Shown piece after piece: positions 17,154 to 59,959 of a stretch of 64,000 nt of DNA. Each line of letters begins with the position of its first letter. The stretch's first letter is position 1. The DNA comes from a virus, in IMG/VR virus record IMGVR_UViG_3300032753_002463, positions 32,933 through 96,932 of that record; one strand, given 5' to 3'. The notes under the pieces are model-generated. The model saw nothing but the letters and a program-made list of their open reading frames with translations. It was not told where the DNA came from and did no database searches. Made by a program: the position numbers and the translations under genes.

Positions 17154-18401
17154 CTAATTATGATATTTTTCGCGAAGATGCAGTTTAGAGGATTGAAGTT
17201 CTACATCCATAATATTACATTCTATAGTTTCCCCAATCATGTAATCTTTTACTAACTTTTCTAATTCTTCCTTTTCTATTAATCCAGTAAGTCCATTATC
17301 TAATTTAACAAAAACTCCAAAATTCTTAATCTTTGTTACTGTTCCAATATAAATTGGTTCTTCGAAATGTACACTTATACTTTCACTATTATCCCTCATT
17401 ATACATACATTCTTCATTCTTTGAAGTTCTATGCTTTTTACATCGGGTTCTTTAACGGTAAGGACAATTCTTTGTGGATTTTTTAAATCTATAACATAAA
17501 ATTCTGCTCTATCTCCTGACCTATAAGGTATATTGGTAGAAAAATCTACATACTCTTCAGCTGGTATAAGACCCGTATAATATTCATCCCATTCAACAAA
17601 TACTCCAGCAGAGGAAGTTCCCGTAACAGTACCAGTATATTTTTGTGTTAATGAAAGTTCTCCTACCTTTGTATGAATGATATTTTTTAGGTACTTTTTG
17701 AAGGATACGACAAAAATATCTCTTTTTTCATCATACGTTTCAACCATAACCATTATTGATTTACCAACAAAAGAATTGAAATCAATAATCCTATTAGCAG
17801 CTGCTAAAGATCCAGGAAGAAAACATTTAATGCCAGATAAATTTACCATAAATCCACCAGGACAAAGATCCTCTACCTTAACAAGGAATGCACTGCGTTC
17901 ATCTTTAATTGCTCTTAATAGCTCGCTCTTTAATGAATTCTCATATCCTTGAGATACAGAACCATTATAATTTCCGGACCTATCAGTAAAAACTACAACA
18001 TCTAATACTGAGCCTATTTCCATAGTAATAGGAGGAAATCCTAATCTTGCTATTGCTTTTTCTTCTTTAGCAACATCAATAATAACGGATTGCCCTATTC
18101 TTGTTTCAGCAATAGCAGTATTATTCTTAATACTCCTAATTACAACCCTTAGAACCTCCTTATCTTTAAGCTCTTTGCTTCTTAGGGGGTTCTCAGAATC
18201 AAAATTTTTCTCATAATAATCCTCGTATAGATTATTTAATGTGTCAAATTCGTCTGGTTTGTACTGAGTAGAAGTATAAGCTCTACTACTTTTTCCTCTA
18301 GGACCCTTGTCATAGAAATTTTCTTCAAAATAGTCCGTGTATTTTTCATTTAACAATTCACGTACTTCTGGTTCGTAACCAGTAACTTCTTTTGTGTTCA
18401 T
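17154..18401 (-). CDS. Ribosomal protein bS1-like protein (multiple S1 domains)
   Basis: GGFMVNLSGIKCFLPGS (D2-like), YTGTVTG...GVFVE..TGLI and GTVTKIKNFGVFVKLDNGLTGLI...EL S1 repeats. Confidence 0.85.
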   Translation of the reverse strand: MNTKEVTGYEPEVRELLNEKYTDYFEENFYDKGPRGKSSRAYTSTQYKPDEFDTLNNLYEDYYEKNFDSENPLRSKELKDKEVLRVVIRSIKNNTAIAETRIGQSVIIDVAKEEKAIARLGFPPITMEIGSVLDVVVFTDRSGNYNGSVSQGYENSLKSELLRAIKDERSAFLVKVEDLCPGGFMVNLSGIKCFLPGSLAAANRIIDFNSFVGKSIMVMVETYDEKRDIFVVSFKKYLKNIIHTKVGELSLTQKYTGTVTGTSSAGVFVEWDEYYTGLIPAEEYVDFSTNIPYRSGDRAEFYVIDLKNPQRIVLTVKEPDVKSIELQRMKNVCIMRDNSESISVHFEEPIYIGTVTKIKNFGVFVKLDNGLTGLIEKEELEKLVKDYMIGETIECNIMDVELQSSKLHLREKYHN

Positions 18402-45108: not shown

Positions 45109-45116
45109 GATATATA
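45109..45116 (+). promoter_or_regulatory. GATATATA motif
   Basis: 16 nt upstream of the RimK-like ATG. Confidence 0.7.
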
Positions 45117-45132
45117 ATTATAATTAGTTCTA

Positions 45133-46605
45133 ATGGAAAAATCAATTAAAGATTTCGTATTTAAAGGAAAGCCCAAGGTTAAAAAGGAAAAACCAAGCTC
45201 ATTGATAGTCCTTACTACTAGATTAGGCAAAAGTGGTTCTATTGCTCCTACTGTAAAAAAACTCGTGGAGAAATGCAAAAAAAGGGGAATAAGATGTGTA
45301 GTTATTGATACACCCTATGGAGTAATAGAAAAAACGGAAAAAGGAACATATTTAATAGGTAATAAGGGAGAAGAAAAAACAGAGGTTGATGTATCTAATA
45401 CTATGATACTCCCTAGGAGATCCTCTATTGAAAATACTGCGGCAGTTAAATTTTTTCAGAAATTAGAAACTATAGGATTTACTGCAATCAATTCATTAAA
45501 ATCAGTTTTAATGTGTGAGGATAAATTGGAAACCTGTGAAAAATTATCAGAAAGAGGCATACCAGTACCAAAAACATCATTAATATCTAACATAAAAAGT
45601 GTAGATAGCGCAGTTGAAGAAATAGGTGGAAGATTTCCAATTATCGTTAAACTACTTAATGGTACAAAAGGCATAGGTGTTTTTCAAATAGATTCTCATC
45701 CATCCCTTATATCTTCGCTTCAAACAATTTGGAAACTTTCCCCTAATACAGAATTACTTTTACAGGAGAAGATTGAAGCTGAATACGATTTGCGTATTCA
45801 CGTTTTAGGCAACCGTGACGGCAGCGACGAAGGATACAATTATGAAGTTATTGGGGCAATGAAAAGGATTAAAATTGAGGGGGATTTTAGGACCAATTTC
45901 TCTCTGGGTGGAGAAACTGAAAAAGTGGAATTAACACCAGAAGTAGAGAAGATAGCTATTAAATGTGCAAAGGCAACAGGCTGTGGTTGGTGTGGAGTAG
46001 ATATCATAGTAGAGTCGGAAACTAAGAAACCCTATGTATTGGAAGTTAATGCTTCCCCTGGAACAGACGGTATAGAAAAAACCACGGATCTTCCAATAAC
46101 AGATATAGTCTTGGACTTTTTATCAAATAAAAAGAACTGGAGCCATCCAACAAAAATTATAGGATTTAGAGAAATTTTTACCGTAAAGGGTGTTGGAGAT
46201 TTTGTAGGAAAATCTGATACTGGTAATGGTGCTATATCTTGTTCCTTACATGCAGATTCATTTGAACAAATAGGCAAAGAAATTATATGGAGTATTGGGG
46301 ATAAGGAATATAAGAATAAAATAGTTGAATACTCTCACCCGGAAATTGGGGCAGAAACAGAAAAGAGGCCAGTTATTTTACTTGATGTAGAATTCGAGGG
46401 AACTACATATACTGATGTTAAATTTTCCGTAGTTGACAGAAAAACAAAGAGTACACCCCTATTAATTAATAGGTCCTTCATGGATAGAGCAGGATTAGTG
46501 ATCGATCCAAGTAGAACCTTTATAGTTACAGATAAACCTGAAGAATATGACCCAGCATCAGCTAAGGAAGGTTCAAGAGGTGGTATAATACTTTCTACCG
46601 AGTAA
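45133..46605 (+). CDS. rimK: RimK-family ATP-grasp ligase fused to a C-terminal RimB-like retropepsin protease
   Basis: EDK, GIPVPKT, FPIIVK..GTKGIGV, LLQE.I...DLRI, FRTNFSLGG, GVDI, LEVNASPG; C-terminal IGFRE, KSDTGN, SLHA, E.RPVI.L, DR.....LLINR.FM....IDPS. Confidence 0.9.
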   Translation: MEKSIKDFVFKGKPKVKKEKPSSLIVLTTRLGKSGSIAPTVKKLVEKCKKRGIRCVVIDTPYGVIEKTEKGTYLIGNKGEEKTEVDVSNTMILPRRSSIENTAAVKFFQKLETIGFTAINSLKSVLMCEDKLETCEKLSERGIPVPKTSLISNIKSVDSAVEEIGGRFPIIVKLLNGTKGIGVFQIDSHPSLISSLQTIWKLSPNTELLLQEKIEAEYDLRIHVLGNRDGSDEGYNYEVIGAMKRIKIEGDFRTNFSLGGETEKVELTPEVEKIAIKCAKATGCGWCGVDIIVESETKKPYVLEVNASPGTDGIEKTTDLPITDIVLDFLSNKKNWSHPTKIIGFREIFTVKGVGDFVGKSDTGNGAISCSLHADSFEQIGKEIIWSIGDKEYKNKIVEYSHPEIGAETEKRPVILLDVEFEGTTYTDVKFSVVDRKTKSTPLLINRSFMDRAGLVIDPSRTFIVTDKPEEYDPASAKEGSRGGIILSTE

Positions 46606-51538: not shown

Positions 51539-52465
51539 TTATTTTGTCGTTGGTGTTCTAACTAAACGGCCGATATAATCTACCTTTAGTCTCATATAGT
51601 TTTTAAAAGCCTCTAATCTATTCTCTGCAGCTTTTTTGTTCCTTTCAATTTCTTCTATTTCTACATCATATATTGGAGCATTAGCTGCATATCGGGTTTT
51701 TTCTGATGTTAGGAATTTCTTTCTAGCATTGAGTTCATTTATTAATTCTTTATACTCGTCAAGATACCTTAATCTAATAGCAAATCCATCATGCTTCCAT
51801 TTAATAAGTTCCTGATCATTTCTTCCTTGTAGATATTGAAGAAAATATTCCCATTTCAAGCAATAAGGCTTATCAATTTTATAATTACCAATTTCTGAAA
51901 TTTCCTCTAATTCTCCATCAGGATCATTAGTAGAACCAGAAACAATTGTAGTGTCCCCAAGAGATTTTCTTAAATTTTCTATATCAGAAAATTGTGCTTG
52001 ATATGTATCTGCATATGGACCATTTTTATGTTTTTTAGCAACTTCATAAGCATAGGAAGCAATAATCTTATCTGCTTTAGCTGCCTCTCTATTATAATAT
52101 TCCGATAGCTTCTTATCTTTTTTTACTATCCTCATAATATCATCCTGAAAATTACCAATTTGGCTATTTCTGGATTTCTCAAAAGCATCCAATGCCTTCT
52201 TATTTATAAGGGCTTTTTGTTTTAATAAGGGACTAACCCCAGGAGACTTTACCTTTCTTCTTGAATCTAATGACTGCGACATATAAATATTATAGCTCAA
52301 TTCATTAGTCTTATCAATAAAATCCTTCTCAACCTTAATCATTTTATTGATAATAGTTTTTATCTTTGTGGAATTACTCGTCATCATAGACTTAACTCCA
52401 TCCGATATTGTATCAAGTAAATTCTCGTTGATGAATTTTTTATATTTCAGTAATTTTTTATTCAT
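51539..52465 (-). CDS. Coiled-coil putative internal head protein, paralogue of 52458-53561
   Basis: MNKKLLKYKKFINE N terminus; shared K(I/L)..I..KM...E..F.D and YYN blocks. Confidence 0.6.
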   Translation of the reverse strand: MNKKLLKYKKFINENLLDTISDGVKSMMTSNSTKIKTIINKMIKVEKDFIDKTNELSYNIYMSQSLDSRRKVKSPGVSPLLKQKALINKKALDAFEKSRNSQIGNFQDDIMRIVKKDKKLSEYYNREAAKADKIIASYAYEVAKKHKNGPYADTYQAQFSDIENLRKSLGDTTIVSGSTNDPDGELEEISEIGNYKIDKPYCLKWEYFLQYLQGRNDQELIKWKHDGFAIRLRYLDEYKELINELNARKKFLTSEKTRYAANAPIYDVEIEEIERNKKAAENRLEAFKNYMRLKVDYIGRLVRTPTTK

Positions 52466-53561
52466 TGCTTACGGTCGCTACTTTTTTTGGTACTGGTTTC
52501 TTTTTCTTTTTCTTCTTTATAATCCCTTGGTAAACTGGAAATTTATAATCAATAAGTTCTTTTTTTATACCCTCTAACTGTTCAGCGTAATATTTAACAG
52601 CATCTTTTAGTTGATCTGTACTTCCATCGGGAGCTAAAGAATTTACTCCATTAATTTTTAATTCTATTCTTCTTATAGCAGTACCCTTTTTAGCAATAAA
52701 TGACGATTCTTTTCTAGAATATTCAGATTTGGAATTTGATGGATTCATTTCCTCGTGATTTATCATCTCATAGATATTATTTTTATATTTAGTAGAGAGA
52801 ACATAAGCATCCTTCATTTTAGTTTCAGCATCTCTAAATATGGCAGATTTCCATTCTGGGCCTGGATCATATTTAGATATTTTGTTTTGTATTTGTTGGA
52901 CCTGATTTTGGACTTCTTCAGCTTCTTTCTTCGCTTCTTCTGGGGTACCAAAAATATCAGCAACCTTTTGTTGTATATTAGTATCTGTTTGGTATTTGGT
53001 TAATTGATATTTATTATCCGCCCTTTTCTTTTTAGCTTCTGCTGAATCCCTTGACCTCTTAAGATTATAATAATCAGCCTTTCTACTATTATCCTTTGTT
53101 ATAATATCTACCTCTTTTTCTAAATCATCCATAATAGTATTATAGGATTTAATTAAACCTCTCATTTGTGATTCTAATTCCTGAAGTCTAAGTTGAACTG
53201 GCCCCATTCTACTCTTATCTTGAGCTCTAAATTTTAGGTGAACGAGCTCTCTAAATAGTTGGATATATTCAGTTTCGATTTTATTCTCTCTATCAACAAA
53301 CTTATTTTCAGTATCATCCATTTTTTGAAGAATAGAATCTAATTTAGAAATATCTCCACCTAAATGCTTTGAAAGAGAATTTAATATTTTAGAGCCAAGA
53401 CCTTCTTTAACTGCTTGTACTGATTCTAATAAATTATATGTTGTTGAGCTTGTGTATTTTGTATTTCTGAGATATTCTGCAGCTAATTCTACATCTCCAT
53501 AACACTCTATAAGAGCTATTTTACAATCCTCGTAAGATTTCAGATTATTTATGAATTTCAT
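52458..53561 (-). CDS. Coiled-coil protein with EF-Ts-like (UBA-type) N-terminal motif and Lys-rich tail
   Basis: DCKIALIECYGDVELAAEYLR; C-terminal KKKKKKKPVPKK. Confidence 0.6.
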   Translation of the reverse strand: MKFINNLKSYEDCKIALIECYGDVELAAEYLRNTKYTSSTTYNLLESVQAVKEGLGSKILNSLSKHLGGDISKLDSILQKMDDTENKFVDRENKIETEYIQLFRELVHLKFRAQDKSRMGPVQLRLQELESQMRGLIKSYNTIMDDLEKEVDIITKDNSRKADYYNLKRSRDSAEAKKKRADNKYQLTKYQTDTNIQQKVADIFGTPEEAKKEAEEVQNQVQQIQNKISKYDPGPEWKSAIFRDAETKMKDAYVLSTKYKNNIYEMINHEEMNPSNSKSEYSRKESSFIAKKGTAIRRIELKINGVNSLAPDGSTDQLKDAVKYYAEQLEGIKKELIDYKFPVYQGIIKKKKKKKPVPKKVATVSNE

Positions 53562-53577
53562 TCGAACTATGTTTTTA

Positions 53578-53585
53578 TATATATC
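53578..53585 (-). promoter_or_regulatory. GATATATA motif
   Basis: 16 nt upstream of 53561, just past the MCP terminator. Confidence 0.7.
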
Positions 53586-53617: not shown

Positions 53618-53645
53618 AAAAGTCCTAGATTGCTCTAGGACTTTT
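53618..53645 (-). terminator. Intrinsic terminator of the capsid operon
   Basis: aaaagtcctaga-ttgc-tctaggactttt (GCAA tetraloop on the - strand). Confidence 0.85.
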
Positions 53646-53671: not shown

Positions 53672-55441
53672 TTAAACAATACCAGCTGCTGGCATAGTAA
53701 CGTAGAATGTAAAGTACATAGTCTGAGGATGGTGACCAGCTTCAACTAATGCGTACCTAGATTTTACCGCGATTTTTGGTGACATTGTACCTTCAGAGAT
53801 TGTCTGAATTGATTCTGCCATCATATAAGGCATAAACTTCATACCTGGTTCGTCATCGCCGCCTTTTCTTCCTACTAATACCCTAGTGTCTGAGTATTTC
53901 ATATTCTGATCAACATATACTGTCATACCAGCGATAGCACCTACAGGGTAAAGTGTACCATTGTTTTGAGTAAGTGTGTTAGAGAACGGTGCAAATGTAA
54001 ACTGACTGATGTCCTGTAGTGCAGAAGCAATCTGTGAGTTACAAACTACAAAGTTAGCTGGTCCTCTCCTACCTCTGTTAGCAACTACGTTAGCAGCAGC
54101 TAATAGCCTAGAGAATAATCTCCTCTGAACGGTAGATTGGTTTTCGTAACCACCTGTTGCGATTTGTCCAGGGGTTGAAAGGGTAATAAGACCTTCAGCT
54201 TTACCAACAAAGCTAGCAGTAGAACCGCTACCTGCACCAATACCAAGGTTGATGTTCATATTCTGTCCTTCTACAGTGTAGAATTCGTAGTGATTAGACC
54301 AACCAAGAGCAAATGCCCTAGAAAGGATGTGCTTATTAATAGCCTGAGATACTTCGTTAACAAGAGAGTTTTCGATCATAGAAACTACGTCGATACCGAA
54401 CTGCTTGTTAAGATCTTGTATCTGTTCAGTGGTAACACCTGCAGCTATCTGGAATGTTCCAGCTTCAACGAATTTAGTGAAGGTGTTAAGCGCCATCTGT
54501 TTGAAGTATGTGCTTTCTCCAACTCCCCTAGCCATTGGATCGTATACCTGAGTTCCGTCAACATAAGGTCCTACCCAGTTATTAGTATTACTAGAACCAG
54601 CTCCTGTGAAACCTTGTATGTGATCTTCAAGTGCTTTAACTAATACAGCTGAACCAGCAGTTGAATCAACAGGAGTAGCAGAAGTAACAGTTAATGTAGT
54701 ACCAGAGAAGGTAGCAGAATAAACGTCTGCAGTACCAGTAGATGGAACACATGCATTAATAGATTGGTTTGCAGTAATACCCTGTACTCTAAAGATAGGG
54801 AAACCATCAATACGAGAATTACCAACAAACTGTGCATAAATTACAGGGGTACCAGTAGAAGTAAGGTTATAAGTAGTAGCAGAAAGGTTAACACCAATTG
54901 CATATACATTACCTACAACTAAGTTAGTAGCAGGAGATGCAGTACTCGTAGGAACCTTAACCAAATCTGGAGAGTTATCAGTGTTGTTAGTAGCAACATC
55001 GGTAGATACACCACCTAATTTACCACCAGCATATACATAATCTAAATAGCTAAGTACGCCTGTAGGTCCTTGCATAGGTATAACTGGTACGATATCAAAA
55101 CCGACAGTCTTTGCAGCTACCTGAATAGCAAGGGGAAGTAAGGATGGGAATTTATCACCAGATCCAAGACCAGAACCTGAATAAGAACCGCCAGCATAGA
55201 ATGCAGCAGGACCACCAACACCACCAGCAGCAGTACCACCATAAAGGTTACCAGCAGGAGCAATATTACCCATACCGTTCATTACACCTAGGGAGTTATA
55301 CGCACCGGCAGACTCATTTAATGAGTGGTAGTGGCAATATGTAGACAACCAGTCGATTTTAGACCTATCTGTTATACCAGTTTTACTCTCGATAATGGGT
55401 GCCCATGTATCGTAGATTTCGTGATGATTAATAAGATTCAT
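53672..55441 (-). CDS. Major capsid protein (T4 gp23-like)
   Basis: WAPIIE, DIVPVIPMQGPTG, TTEQIQDL..QFGID, E..Q.IN..IL, RRG.ANFVV.N, G...G..VYVD, FMPY, T..PKI.VKSRYAL. Confidence 0.93.
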   Translation of the reverse strand: MNLINHHEIYDTWAPIIESKTGITDRSKIDWLSTYCHYHSLNESAGAYNSLGVMNGMGNIAPAGNLYGGTAAGGVGGPAAFYAGGSYSGSGLGSGDKFPSLLPLAIQVAAKTVGFDIVPVIPMQGPTGVLSYLDYVYAGGKLGGVSTDVATNNTDNSPDLVKVPTSTASPATNLVVGNVYAIGVNLSATTYNLTSTGTPVIYAQFVGNSRIDGFPIFRVQGITANQSINACVPSTGTADVYSATFSGTTLTVTSATPVDSTAGSAVLVKALEDHIQGFTGAGSSNTNNWVGPYVDGTQVYDPMARGVGESTYFKQMALNTFTKFVEAGTFQIAAGVTTEQIQDLNKQFGIDVVSMIENSLVNEVSQAINKHILSRAFALGWSNHYEFYTVEGQNMNINLGIGAGSGSTASFVGKAEGLITLSTPGQIATGGYENQSTVQRRLFSRLLAAANVVANRGRRGPANFVVCNSQIASALQDISQFTFAPFSNTLTQNNGTLYPVGAIAGMTVYVDQNMKYSDTRVLVGRKGGDDEPGMKFMPYMMAESIQTISEGTMSPKIAVKSRYALVEAGHHPQTMYFTFYVTMPAAGIV

Positions 55442-55466: not shown

Positions 55467-57587
55467 TTACTTTCTAAACCTAAGATCAAGTTGTGCAGCT
55501 ATATTGCTGATATAATCAGAATTATAACCTTTACCATTTTGACCAGAGATTAATTTTTTACTTTCGTCTAACTGCTGAACATTCTTAGCTGATACTTTAA
55601 TTCCTCTTGATTTCCAGAAGTGATTTATTTGGTATGGTGTATCAAGCCTATAAGACTTACTTTGTGCAATAATTGAAGCTCTTTGACCTTCATTCATTGT
55701 TTCCCATGCTCCCTTAAATTCTTCTGGCATCATATCAAGGAATTTTTCACCTGATCTTGCCTGCTCTGTTAGAGCGTTGCCCATGATATCAATTACTTCT
55801 TTTTCGGATGAATAATTGTTCTCATTAAGCGCTTTTGTCACCTTTTGTTTTTCGGCTTCGTTTAGAGATAAAAATCCAGTCTTAACGTCGTTATTCACTA
55901 ACTTTAAGAAACTATATTTTTTCTCGTTTATTATCTCATCTGTCTTTTGTTTATTAACAGATTCTATTAGAGTATCTATCTTAGAAGAAATTCCTTCGTA
56001 GTTTCCAGAAAATCCTGAGATTCTCTTATTTTCGGAAATAGCTTGAGTTATCTCTTTTGTTAAATTTTTGTTTCCTTTTATATTGTTCATTGATTCTGCT
56101 AATGCCTCAGCATAACCAATATTATTTCCTAATTTTTCTGATAAGTAATCGGAAAATTGAATGCTCTTATGTAGATTCTCTGCAAGATAGTCAGAAAATG
56201 CTAAGCCTTGATTAACTTTTTCACCAATACTTTCAGAATATCTAATACCTCTATCTAAATTTAATGCTAAATACTCGCCATAAGAAATACTCCTATCCAA
56301 ATTCTCTGCAAGATAGTTTTGATAAGAAATAACTTTGTTCATACTTTCGGTAAGGTAGTCACCATAAGTTATATTTTTATCCAAATTCTCTGCAAGATAT
56401 TCACTATATCTAATATTCTTATCTACATTTTCCGCAATATATTCAGTATAAGCTACTGCTTGCCTGATTTTTTCTTCCAATGTAACAAATTTAGCTACAC
56501 TATTATCTACGTTTTCCGCAATATACTCTGCGTAAGAAATGTTGTTATCAAGGTGTTCAGCCAAGTACTTAGCATATGCTATTACTCTTTGTAGACTTTC
56601 ATCCATTTGCCTATTTTCAGTAACTGTACCTTCTAGGTGTTCTGAAAGATATTCGCTATATTTAATAGATGCTTCTAAATTTTCTGCAAGATAGTCACAA
56701 TATTTTTCCAACTTAGAAATTCTTTCTTCTGAAGTCATACTAGATTTTTCGGTCTTATCTGCCTTAGCTTTTTCGTTAATCTTAACTGGTACCTTAGTAG
56801 TCTTTAAAGAAGAAAGGGAAGCTTTAAGAGCTGACATTTCCTTTTGAAGTAATTTGGTATATTCATTAAGTTCTTCCGCAGTAACAAAATTTTCCATGCT
56901 CGATTGCTTATTTGTAATATTTTCTTTCTTGGATAGCAATTTTGCTATTTTCTCCTGATCCTTGATTCTATATATCCTAATATTAGAATCATTCTTCAGC
57001 CCAAAATTCTCATTTATTACAGAAAGTCCATTAATAATGGAATCTTTCTTATTTTTTTCATTTAAACCCGATCCAAAACTTTCATAAACCCTACCCAATT
57101 GAGCAGTTTCAAATCCTGGATCTGCTACTAGATCATAGGTAAAAATTCTTTTAATCTCTACCCTCTTATTAGCGCCTACTACACCTGCAGCTCTAGAAGA
57201 AATGGAAATTGGTATTCCTGCTTCTACTAGAGACCTAGCAATTTGGCCTGCTGGAGTATCTAAAAGTTTAACCTTAATTCTAACAGTCCTATCCTCCTTA
57301 TTATAAACAAGTTTTTCAATAACATGAGATAGATTCTTTAAAGAAACATCAAATTCCTTAGGATGATCTAATTCACCACAAAGCCTTCTTTGGTTAATCT
57401 TTTCGTTTAAATATTCTAGGTGAGGAAGATATTCACTTTCCTCATAGATCCTTTGATTCGAATTTTCCTTACCAAAAACTGCAGCAACACCTTCTAAGTA
57501 GATGTCATTGGAGTTTTGGCTTCTCTCTGTTTTTAAATTAGAAAGGGATCTTTCCAATATTAAAACGTAATCCTGGTTTTGGGCCAT
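55467..57587 (-). CDS. Prohead maturation protease (gp21-like) fused to a scaffolding domain
   Basis: YLEG, N.NQRIY, GELDHP, SH, LLDTPAG, ISSRAAG, TYDLVADPGF; then ~14-aa YxEYLAEnL repeats. Confidence 0.92.
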   Translation of the reverse strand: MAQNQDYVLILERSLSNLKTERSQNSNDIYLEGVAAVFGKENSNQRIYEESEYLPHLEYLNEKINQRRLCGELDHPKEFDVSLKNLSHVIEKLVYNKEDRTVRIKVKLLDTPAGQIARSLVEAGIPISISSRAAGVVGANKRVEIKRIFTYDLVADPGFETAQLGRVYESFGSGLNEKNKKDSIINGLSVINENFGLKNDSNIRIYRIKDQEKIAKLLSKKENITNKQSSMENFVTAEELNEYTKLLQKEMSALKASLSSLKTTKVPVKINEKAKADKTEKSSMTSEERISKLEKYCDYLAENLEASIKYSEYLSEHLEGTVTENRQMDESLQRVIAYAKYLAEHLDNNISYAEYIAENVDNSVAKFVTLEEKIRQAVAYTEYIAENVDKNIRYSEYLAENLDKNITYGDYLTESMNKVISYQNYLAENLDRSISYGEYLALNLDRGIRYSESIGEKVNQGLAFSDYLAENLHKSIQFSDYLSEKLGNNIGYAEALAESMNNIKGNKNLTKEITQAISENKRISGFSGNYEGISSKIDTLIESVNKQKTDEIINEKKYSFLKLVNNDVKTGFLSLNEAEKQKVTKALNENNYSSEKEVIDIMGNALTEQARSGEKFLDMMPEEFKGAWETMNEGQRASIIAQSKSYRLDTPYQINHFWKSRGIKVSAKNVQQLDESKKLISGQNGKGYNSDYISNIAAQLDLRFRK

Positions 57588-57609: not shown

Positions 57610-57617
57610 TATATATC
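57610..57617 (-). promoter_or_regulatory. GATATATA motif heading the protease-MCP operon
   Basis: 22 nt upstream of the 57587 ATG. Confidence 0.75.
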
Positions 57618-57647: not shown

Positions 57648-59912
<2,265 letters not shown>

Positions 59913-59951: not shown

Positions 59952-59959
59952 TATATATC
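59952..59959 (-). promoter_or_regulatory. GATATATA motif
   Basis: Upstream of 59912, following a terminator. Confidence 0.65.

Follow-up and report, generated by a model that had tools for sequence, protein, structure and literature searches.

What is a piece of a translation factor doing at the front of a phage head gene? The question is raised by the window analyzed here, a stretch of 64,000 nt from IMG/VR record IMGVR_UViG_3300032753_002463, which is itself a 96.9-kb viral fragment judged to be 35% complete. On the minus strand of the window, where all features named below lie unless stated otherwise, an open reading frame (ORF) at positions 52458 to 53561 encodes P0001, a basic, all-helical protein of 367 residues whose N terminus reads MKFINNLKSYEDCKIALIECYGDVELAAEYLRNTKY. 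A first-pass annotation, made from the letters alone, had placed this gene directly behind the major capsid gene, which is correct: it starts 110 bp past the stop of a gene of the Gp23 family. The same annotation had taken the beginning of P0001 for a mimic of the N-terminal domain of elongation factor Ts (EF-Ts) and the whole for a possibly packaged protein that binds elongation factor Tu (EF-Tu). The answer that we tentatively prefer is a different one, namely, that P0001 belongs among the internal head proteins and has a cleavable propeptide built around an EF-Ts-type hairpin, the hairpin serving for docking or solubility during assembly.

The motif behind the earlier claim lies exactly at positions 53466 to 53528 and corresponds to P0001 residues 12 to 32, DCKIALIECYGDVELAAEYLR. 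The Escherichia coli EF-Ts string that had been given for comparison agrees with residues 21 to 44 of chain 1efu_B, and 13 of 21 positions are indeed identical. A profile search had been proposed as a check, and it supported the similarity: hhalign comparison of the P0001-family N-terminal alignment with 118 distinct EF-Ts N-domains gathered from bacterial genomes gave a Prob of 96.4 and a P of 1.2e-9 over 27 columns, with phage residues 11 to 37 falling on EF-Ts residues 20 to 46. None of 28 controls had a P value below 0.018; these were 20 column-shuffled templates, a single reversed one and seven further helical segments from the P0001 family. The phage profile also scored every one of the 118 EF-Ts N-domains positively (median, 16.2 bits; maximum, 25), with no lineage ahead of the others. 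The matched segment, residues 11 to 37 (53451 to 53531), is a hairpin whose homologous counterpart in the TS-N/UBA-like domain at the N terminus of EF-Ts comprises helix 2, the GD turn and helix 3.

Searches of broader collections pointed in the same direction. The best Pfam match of P0001 was UBA/TS-N, which at an E value of 0.038 and 14.3 bits remained below the gathering score of 22.4; it was seen again in four of the 12 members of the family, at an E value of 0.002 at best. A profile built from the first 60 residues of 14 orthologues had four matches below an E value of 0.05 in the PDB, all of them E. coli EF-Ts-containing chains (best E, 0.006). Against 1.84 billion cluster representatives, the same profile had 15 matches at E values of 0.001 or lower, and the only ones that were neither family members nor repeat proteins were three EF-Ts proteins (E, 1e-4 to 3e-4). 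These three carry tandem N-domains, each of which scored 16 to 22 bits over profile positions 12 to 36, and one such domain reads DCKKALLECDGDLEKAAEYLR, identical to the phage motif at 16 of 21 positions. Three repeat matches from that search, TPR proteins and a tail-fibre protein, were set aside as artifacts in which weak stretches add up, not as relatives. These repeat matches, together with a segment length of only about 25 residues and the low specificity of the fold searches described below, could be taken to speak for a chance or convergent helix-turn-helix resemblance. However, since the profile-profile P value stood against clean controls and EF-Ts proteins were the only other nonrepeat matches, we regard chance as very improbable; that explanation already looks refuted. 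Judging from these alignments, the hairpin and the EF-Ts N-domain very probably share a common origin.

Conservation of the motif in orthologues had likewise been named as a check, and the motif is present in every orthologue found. No variation occurs at Y10, C13, E19, G22 or A27, and at least 90% of the orthologues retain K14. Between two subfamilies, the hairpin is 41% identical, which equals the best parts of the body, compared to 15% in the C-terminal half. No donor lineage could be named, as the top-scoring EF-Ts domains came alike from Alteromonas, Sphingobacterium and Enterobacter. Nor did the six-frame ORFs of the 96.9-kb fragment contain a second copy of the module (next best E, 0.28), so that the idea of the hairpin as a targeting tag common to several proteins finds no support in that fragment.

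The resemblance covers part of the EF-Ts domain only. The description as an EF-Ts N-domain mimic holds for helix 2, the turn and helix 3, while helix 1 and the TGAG loop are not represented. In their place stands a short amphipathic lead-in, residues 1 to 10 (MKFINNLKSY; 53532 to 53561), which ends on the invariant Y10, was left unaligned by hhalign and contains no LR..TG.G; compared with the 118 EF-Ts sequences, it thus lacks an equivalent of helix 1 and of the L-R-x-x-T-G-A-G loop. AlphaFold2 (AF2) predicted a short turn here, followed by a continuous helix from residue 7 to residue 19. The EF-Tu-binding hairpin of EF-Ts, which we take to consist of helix 1, the TGxG loop and helix 2, is by this alignment half absent from P0001. 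This binding hairpin is common to EF-Ts and L7/12 (PMC4739770). The EF-Ts core (PF00889), with the TDFV/Phe81 exchange machinery, had no match in P0001 or in the 96.9-kb fragment. Genes for the EF-Ts core and for EF-Tu were also not found in the record of this phage and two related viral records, but these are fragments that are 10 to 52% complete, so their absence proves little. With the core as well as helix 1 and the TGAG loop missing, P0001 is, as far as its sequence tells, not a member of the EF-Ts family.

Structure prediction was less discriminating. The N-terminal AF2 model (predicted local distance difference test score [pLDDT], 82) has helices at residues 7 to 19, 24 to 34 and 41 to 58. 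A Foldseek comparison with EF-Ts and generic UBA domains had been suggested, but a search of the PDB with this model returned nothing significant and singled out neither fold. The Cbl-b UBA domain could be aligned over 25 columns with a root mean square deviation of 0.5 Å, but its Foldseek E value was 9 and its VIA Z score 2.1. A wide VIA search with the same model yielded generic three-helix bundles only, with Z scores of at most 6.2. A ubiquitin-binding role like that of eukaryotic UBA domains was set aside, since EF-Ts proteins are the closer kin and P0001 lacks the loop that UBA domains use between their helices 1 and 2.

Could the hairpin nevertheless still bind EF-Tu? According to this explanation, the hairpin would dock on the G domain of host EF-Tu, in the helix D region, either within the precursor or as a released propeptide; it could then modulate translation, shield EF-Tu from Lit- or Avs7-like abortive-infection systems triggered by the capsid, or carry EF-Tu along into the head. 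In sequence, the module is indeed closer to EF-Ts N-domains than to generic UBA domains, and the hairpin is strongly conserved. In the Mycobacterium tuberculosis complex, the EF-Ts N-domain contacts EF-Tu through Arg13 of helix 1 and Lys24 of helix 2, the latter being the Lys of the DCK motif that forms a salt bridge with EF-Tu D144/D145 (PMC9529903). Phage Lys14, the residue kept in at least 90% of orthologues, is the equivalent of this Lys (numbering checked on actinobacterial sequences). Moreover, the gene adjoins the capsid gene, and the T4 capsid protein has been reported to bind EF-Tu (PMC12803255); the same phage also encodes an S1-domain protein of the translation type. T4 internal proteins are present at about 1,000 copies per head (PMC8442874), so amounts comparable with those of EF-Tu are conceivable.

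In contrast, the contact Arg of helix 1 (PMC9529903) has no equivalent in the phage protein, among the known EF-Tu contacts only the Lys of DCK is retained, and the missing helix 1 and TGAG loop make up one arm of the binding hairpin (PMC4739770). Of the residues shared with EF-Ts, all but Lys14 and Glu19 occupy core or helix-cap positions that any such hairpin requires, and the phage family does not conserve positions K24 and R41 of EF-Ts. The missing EF-Ts core speaks against this explanation as well. To our knowledge, an isolated EF-Ts N-domain is not known to bind EF-Tu alone. Overall, we consider EF-Tu binding rather unlikely. Its more specific form, in which a propeptide of 46 to 53 residues, produced in quantity alongside the capsid and released by the prohead protease as the head matures, would be an EF-Ts-derived EF-Tu ligand on the EF-Ts/L7-L12 face (helix D), seems unlikely too; such a ligand, if real, would tune late translation, blunt defenses that sense the capsid via EF-Tu (Lit-like proteases and Avs7-like sensors) or load EF-Tu into the head.

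How the hairpin came to its place is suggested by the adjoining gene, P0002 (51539 to 52465), which encodes a basic paralogue of 308 residues (isoelectric point [pI], 9.39; BLASTP against P0001, E 0.004). At the level of the two families, hhalign gave a Prob of 93.7 and a P of 1.8e-7, with P0001 residues 49 to 208 matching P0002 residues 14 to 163. BLASTP, profile-profile comparison and a joint alignment all agree with the earlier remark that this paralogue lacks the EF-Ts segment. The N terminus of P0002 carries a T4-type capsid-targeting sequence, KYKKFINE, with the predicted cleavage before the following N (52424 to 52447), and the N termini of its orthologues read MKKYSEFITE, MKTYKQFISS and MKKYSEFISE. 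In T4, the corresponding sequence reads MKTYQEFIAE (PMC8442874); its positions 4 and 7 govern targeting, and its positions 8 and 10 govern processing (PMC9026906). The P0002 family keeps Y4 and F7 for the former and I8 and E10 for the latter, and these N termini suggest that Lak-related huge phages have conserved a T4-style way of targeting internal proteins. A paralogue with a near-T4 targeting start follows a P0001 orthologue at eight further loci (L003, L008, L012, L013, L016 to L018 and L020).

In the joint alignment, the MK-KY of the paralogue falls on K35-Y36 of P0001, and P0001 residues 1 to 33 are an N-terminal addition. The proposal of a grafted module is thereby borne out, in that these residues stand before a KY common to both families. 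The trace of a targeting sequence in P0001 is limited to K35-Y36, behind the hairpin. Since MK-KY aligns there and residues 1 to 33 are extra, the hairpin appears to have been fused ahead of a decayed targeting signal.

The linker that follows, residues 35 to 53 (53403 to 53459), contains this K35-Y36 remnant and two [LIV]-x-E sites. The first is LLE46↓S (residues 44 to 47; LLE at 53424 to 53432), with E46 kept in at least 90%, and the second is VKE53↓G (residues 51 to 54; VKE at 53403 to 53411), with E53 invariant. Both had been noticed downstream of the motif as putative maturation sites, and both are present in P0001 and conserved. A few residues behind its targeting sequence, the P0002 family carries [VLM]-N-E↓G-F, whose partner in the alignment is the invariant V/I-K-E53↓G/S of P0001. 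The T4 protease gp21 cuts after L/I-X-E, and the propeptides of related giant phages hold several cleavage sites (PMC9026906).

A protease of this type is encoded in the window: a 706-residue protein at 55467 to 57587 joins a prohead protease (S77, T4 gp21-like; Pfam PF03420, E 2.6e-8; head maturation protease phrog_207, E 1.1e-34) to a repeat scaffold. The protease-linked scaffold contains 31 [LIV]xE sites against 16 expected, mostly in Y-L-A-E↓N repeats. Its scaffold region of about 400 residues is made up of some 14 tandem units of the form Y-[LI]-[AST]-E-[NHS]-[LVM]-D/E-x-x-I-x-Y, each with an L/I-x-E site. P0001 has five [LIV]xE sites in total, including the two at residues 44 to 46 and 51 to 53, and by their sequence these two would fit the T4-type prohead protease of the phage. 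As the hairpin lies upstream of conserved protease-type sites, its release within a propeptide is plausible.

One might instead suppose that the [LIV]xE sites stay uncut and that the hairpin is retained on the mature protein, acting after ejection on EF-Tu or on another early target. T4 internal proteins do act in the newly infected cell (PMC9026906), and the P0001 sites lie in a predicted helix that packs beside the hairpin. However, the invariant E53 aligns with the site that in the paralogue comes directly after the targeting sequence, and tandem sites fit the redundancy known from propeptides (PMC9026906). We therefore hold a retained hairpin to be improbable.

The body of P0001 is in keeping with an internal head protein. 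The 12 homologues found are 30 to 82% identical to P0001, and the full-length AF2 model (pLDDT, 78.6) shows helices throughout. Residues 54 to 367 form a basic part with a pI of 9.33, ending in a conserved Y-x-F-P followed by a run of Lys (KKKKKKKPVPKK; 52461 to 52541); this tail is predicted to be disordered, with a pLDDT below 50 for residues 349 to 367. With a pI of 5.0, residues 1 to 53 would place an acidic propeptide before the basic body, a charge split like that of T4 internal proteins (PMC8442874). The name "Cmr5 small subunit," which JGI gives to a P0001 orthologue (P0013, in a cluster of 53), is without support and looks like the misannotation of a helical protein. A further gene call, P0024 (295 residues), joins the N terminus of a GT2 glycosyltransferase to P0001-like sequence from G22, inside the hairpin, and is probably an assembly or gene-calling chimera.

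Taken as an internal head protein, P0001 would be made late from the run of head genes as a basic, all-helical protein of the prohead core or of the ejection type. The 33-residue module, corresponding to helix 2, turn and helix 3 of EF-Ts, would have been added ahead of the targeting-signal remnant, and the resulting acidic propeptide of 53 residues would dock P0001 in the scaffold core. Two genes upstream lies the gene for the T4 gp21-type protease, which would then remove the propeptide at LLE46↓S, at VKE53↓G or at both, and a 36-kDa basic protein (pI 9.3) would remain in the head. The hairpin would thus be a small protein-binding module put to a new use, which docks the basic protein or keeps it soluble or inactive before assembly, and presumably not a nucleotide exchange factor.

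A related possibility is that P0001 never enters the virion and is an accessory to the scaffold or a chaperone, with its hairpin binding the capsid or scaffold protein. Its position in the head operon, its coiled-coil-like all-helical build and a PHROG search that gave only a weak match to a family of unknown function would all suit such an assembly factor. The basic body, the Lys tail and the paralogy to a protein with a targeting sequence, however, point to a packaged internal protein, and a long repeat scaffold, fused to the protease, is already at the phage's disposal. A role outside the virion is therefore doubtful and, in our view, quite unlikely.

Several observations weigh against the internal head protein that we prefer. 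A third [LIV]xE site, LIE19, lies inside the hairpin itself, and both candidate cleavage sites fall within a helix predicted by AF2 at residues 41 to 55. The KY remnant is short, and its spacing to the sites is unlike that of a true capsid-targeting sequence; in T4, moreover, this sequence works at the extreme N terminus. The full-length model had no fold match in the PDB or BFVD, and tblastn with P0001 and P0002 against 50,697 phage records gave no match, so that there is no homologue from a cultured phage to draw on. The presence of P0001 in the virion and its cleavage are predictions from sequence and gene context. Finally, scaffold docking alone would leave unexplained why EF-Ts-like residues, including Lys14, are conserved across such deep divergence. 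A search of the ESM Atlas gave no usable match.

Comparison with known systems helps to place P0001. Like the EF-Ts N-domain (PF00627 and PF25025), it carries the signature D-C-K-x-A-L-x-E-x-x-G-D-x-E-x-A-x-x-x-L with the contact Lys. It differs from EF-Ts in lacking helix 1, the TGAG loop, the helix-1 Arg, the core (TDFV and Phe81) and the dimerization and C-terminal parts; its hairpin sits at the N terminus of a phage head protein; and the additional conserved residues Y10, I18 and Y/F21 suggest a new packing surface. With IPI, IPII and IPIII, which are internal proteins of T4, the system shares a gp21-like protease, a gp23-like capsid protein, genes for basic proteins next to the head genes, a P0002 N terminus close to the T4 targeting sequence and L/I/V-x-E sites directly ahead of the conserved body. 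In contrast, the mature parts have no detectable sequence similarity to those of T4, the P0001 propeptide would span 53 residues instead of 10 to 19 and would hold a folded domain of cellular origin, and packaging and cleavage are predictions. The head proteins of phages phiKZ, 201phi2-1 and SPN3US also have long N-terminal propeptides with several Glu-type sites and gp21-related proteases (PMC9026906). Their cleavage motif, however, is S/A-X-E, the proteins are unrelated, and an EF-Ts-derived module has not been reported there. By analogy, P0001 may work like a T4 internal protein or like a long propeptide of the phiKZ type. A phage-borne EF-Ts fragment is also known as gp247 of the Caulobacter phage Colossus (PMC3556154), but this is a free-standing piece of the EF-Ts core with 98 residues (subdomain N, including the equivalent of Phe81), neither corresponding to the N-terminal hairpin nor joined to a structural protein.

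Our literature search returned no paper tying EF-Ts or UBA-like domains to phage head propeptides and none that joined the term "capsid targeting sequence" with megaphage terms. If our reading of P0001 is right, a fragment of a core translation factor was captured by a phage and, throughout a deep clade of huge phages, has become a fixed part of a head-protein propeptide. Almost unchanged, the T4 targeting sequence and L/I-X-E processing appear to reach phages that are related to the Lak megaphages and probably infect Bacteroidota, which offers a handle for predicting packaged or ejected proteins of uncultured giant phages and may aid the loading of cargo into such heads. Should the hairpin still bind EF-Tu, phage and host would meet in a new kind of interface, at the most abundant protein of the host and in step with capsid production, with a bearing on EF-Tu-dependent abortive infection.

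The phage itself is probably a huge phage related to Lak with a host among the Bacteroidota. Its major capsid protein (53672 to 55441), of the T4 Gp23 family (Pfam PF07068, E 2.7e-39), is 39 to 44% identical to the capsid proteins of Lak megaphages, which infect Prevotella, and of LR756500, a 462-kb uncultured phage; the remaining capsid matches were mostly to Bacteroidota phages. A freshwater lineage with predicted Bacteroidota hosts has been described (PMC12619734), and the phage of the window may be akin to it. The contigs that carry P0001 orthologues reach 474 kb, and relatives of 450 to 470 kb occur in freshwater samples. Behind their capsid genes, Lak-A2 and LR756500 carry unrelated genes.

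Along the minus strand, the head module runs from a 754-residue protein without a Pfam family (57648 to 59912), on the other flank of the head genes, through the protease-scaffold gene and the capsid gene to a terminator-like hairpin, the motif GATATATA, P0001, P0002 and P0005. This order is retained among relatives as distant as about 30% identity, and the start of P0002 overlaps the end of P0001. P0005 (49146 to 51524), the third of this co-oriented run, has 792 residues and kept synteny in relatives; its sole library signal was a weak PHROG endolysin match (E 0.008), and it has no Pfam family. The terminator-like hairpin (53618 to 53645), a 12-bp stem followed by a T tract, lies just past the capsid gene. 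The promoter-like motif GATATATA (53578 to 53585) stands 17 nt upstream of the P0001 start codon. Its 12 copies in the window are no more than chance would give, but for 11 of them an ORF on the matching strand starts no more than about 40 nt downstream, and the motif is likely a promoter element of the phage. Further sites include 57610 to 57617 and 59952 to 59959 on the minus strand and 45109 to 45116 on the plus strand.

Elsewhere in the window, a protein of 415 residues with S1 RNA-binding domains (17154 to 18401; Pfam E 2.5e-18) is encoded amid structural genes and is a phage-encoded translation protein like bS1. On the plus strand, positions 45133 to 46605 encode a RimK-type ATP-grasp ligase (Pfam E 2.8e-38), whose C-terminal region weakly matches a family named "putative ATP-dependent zinc protease."

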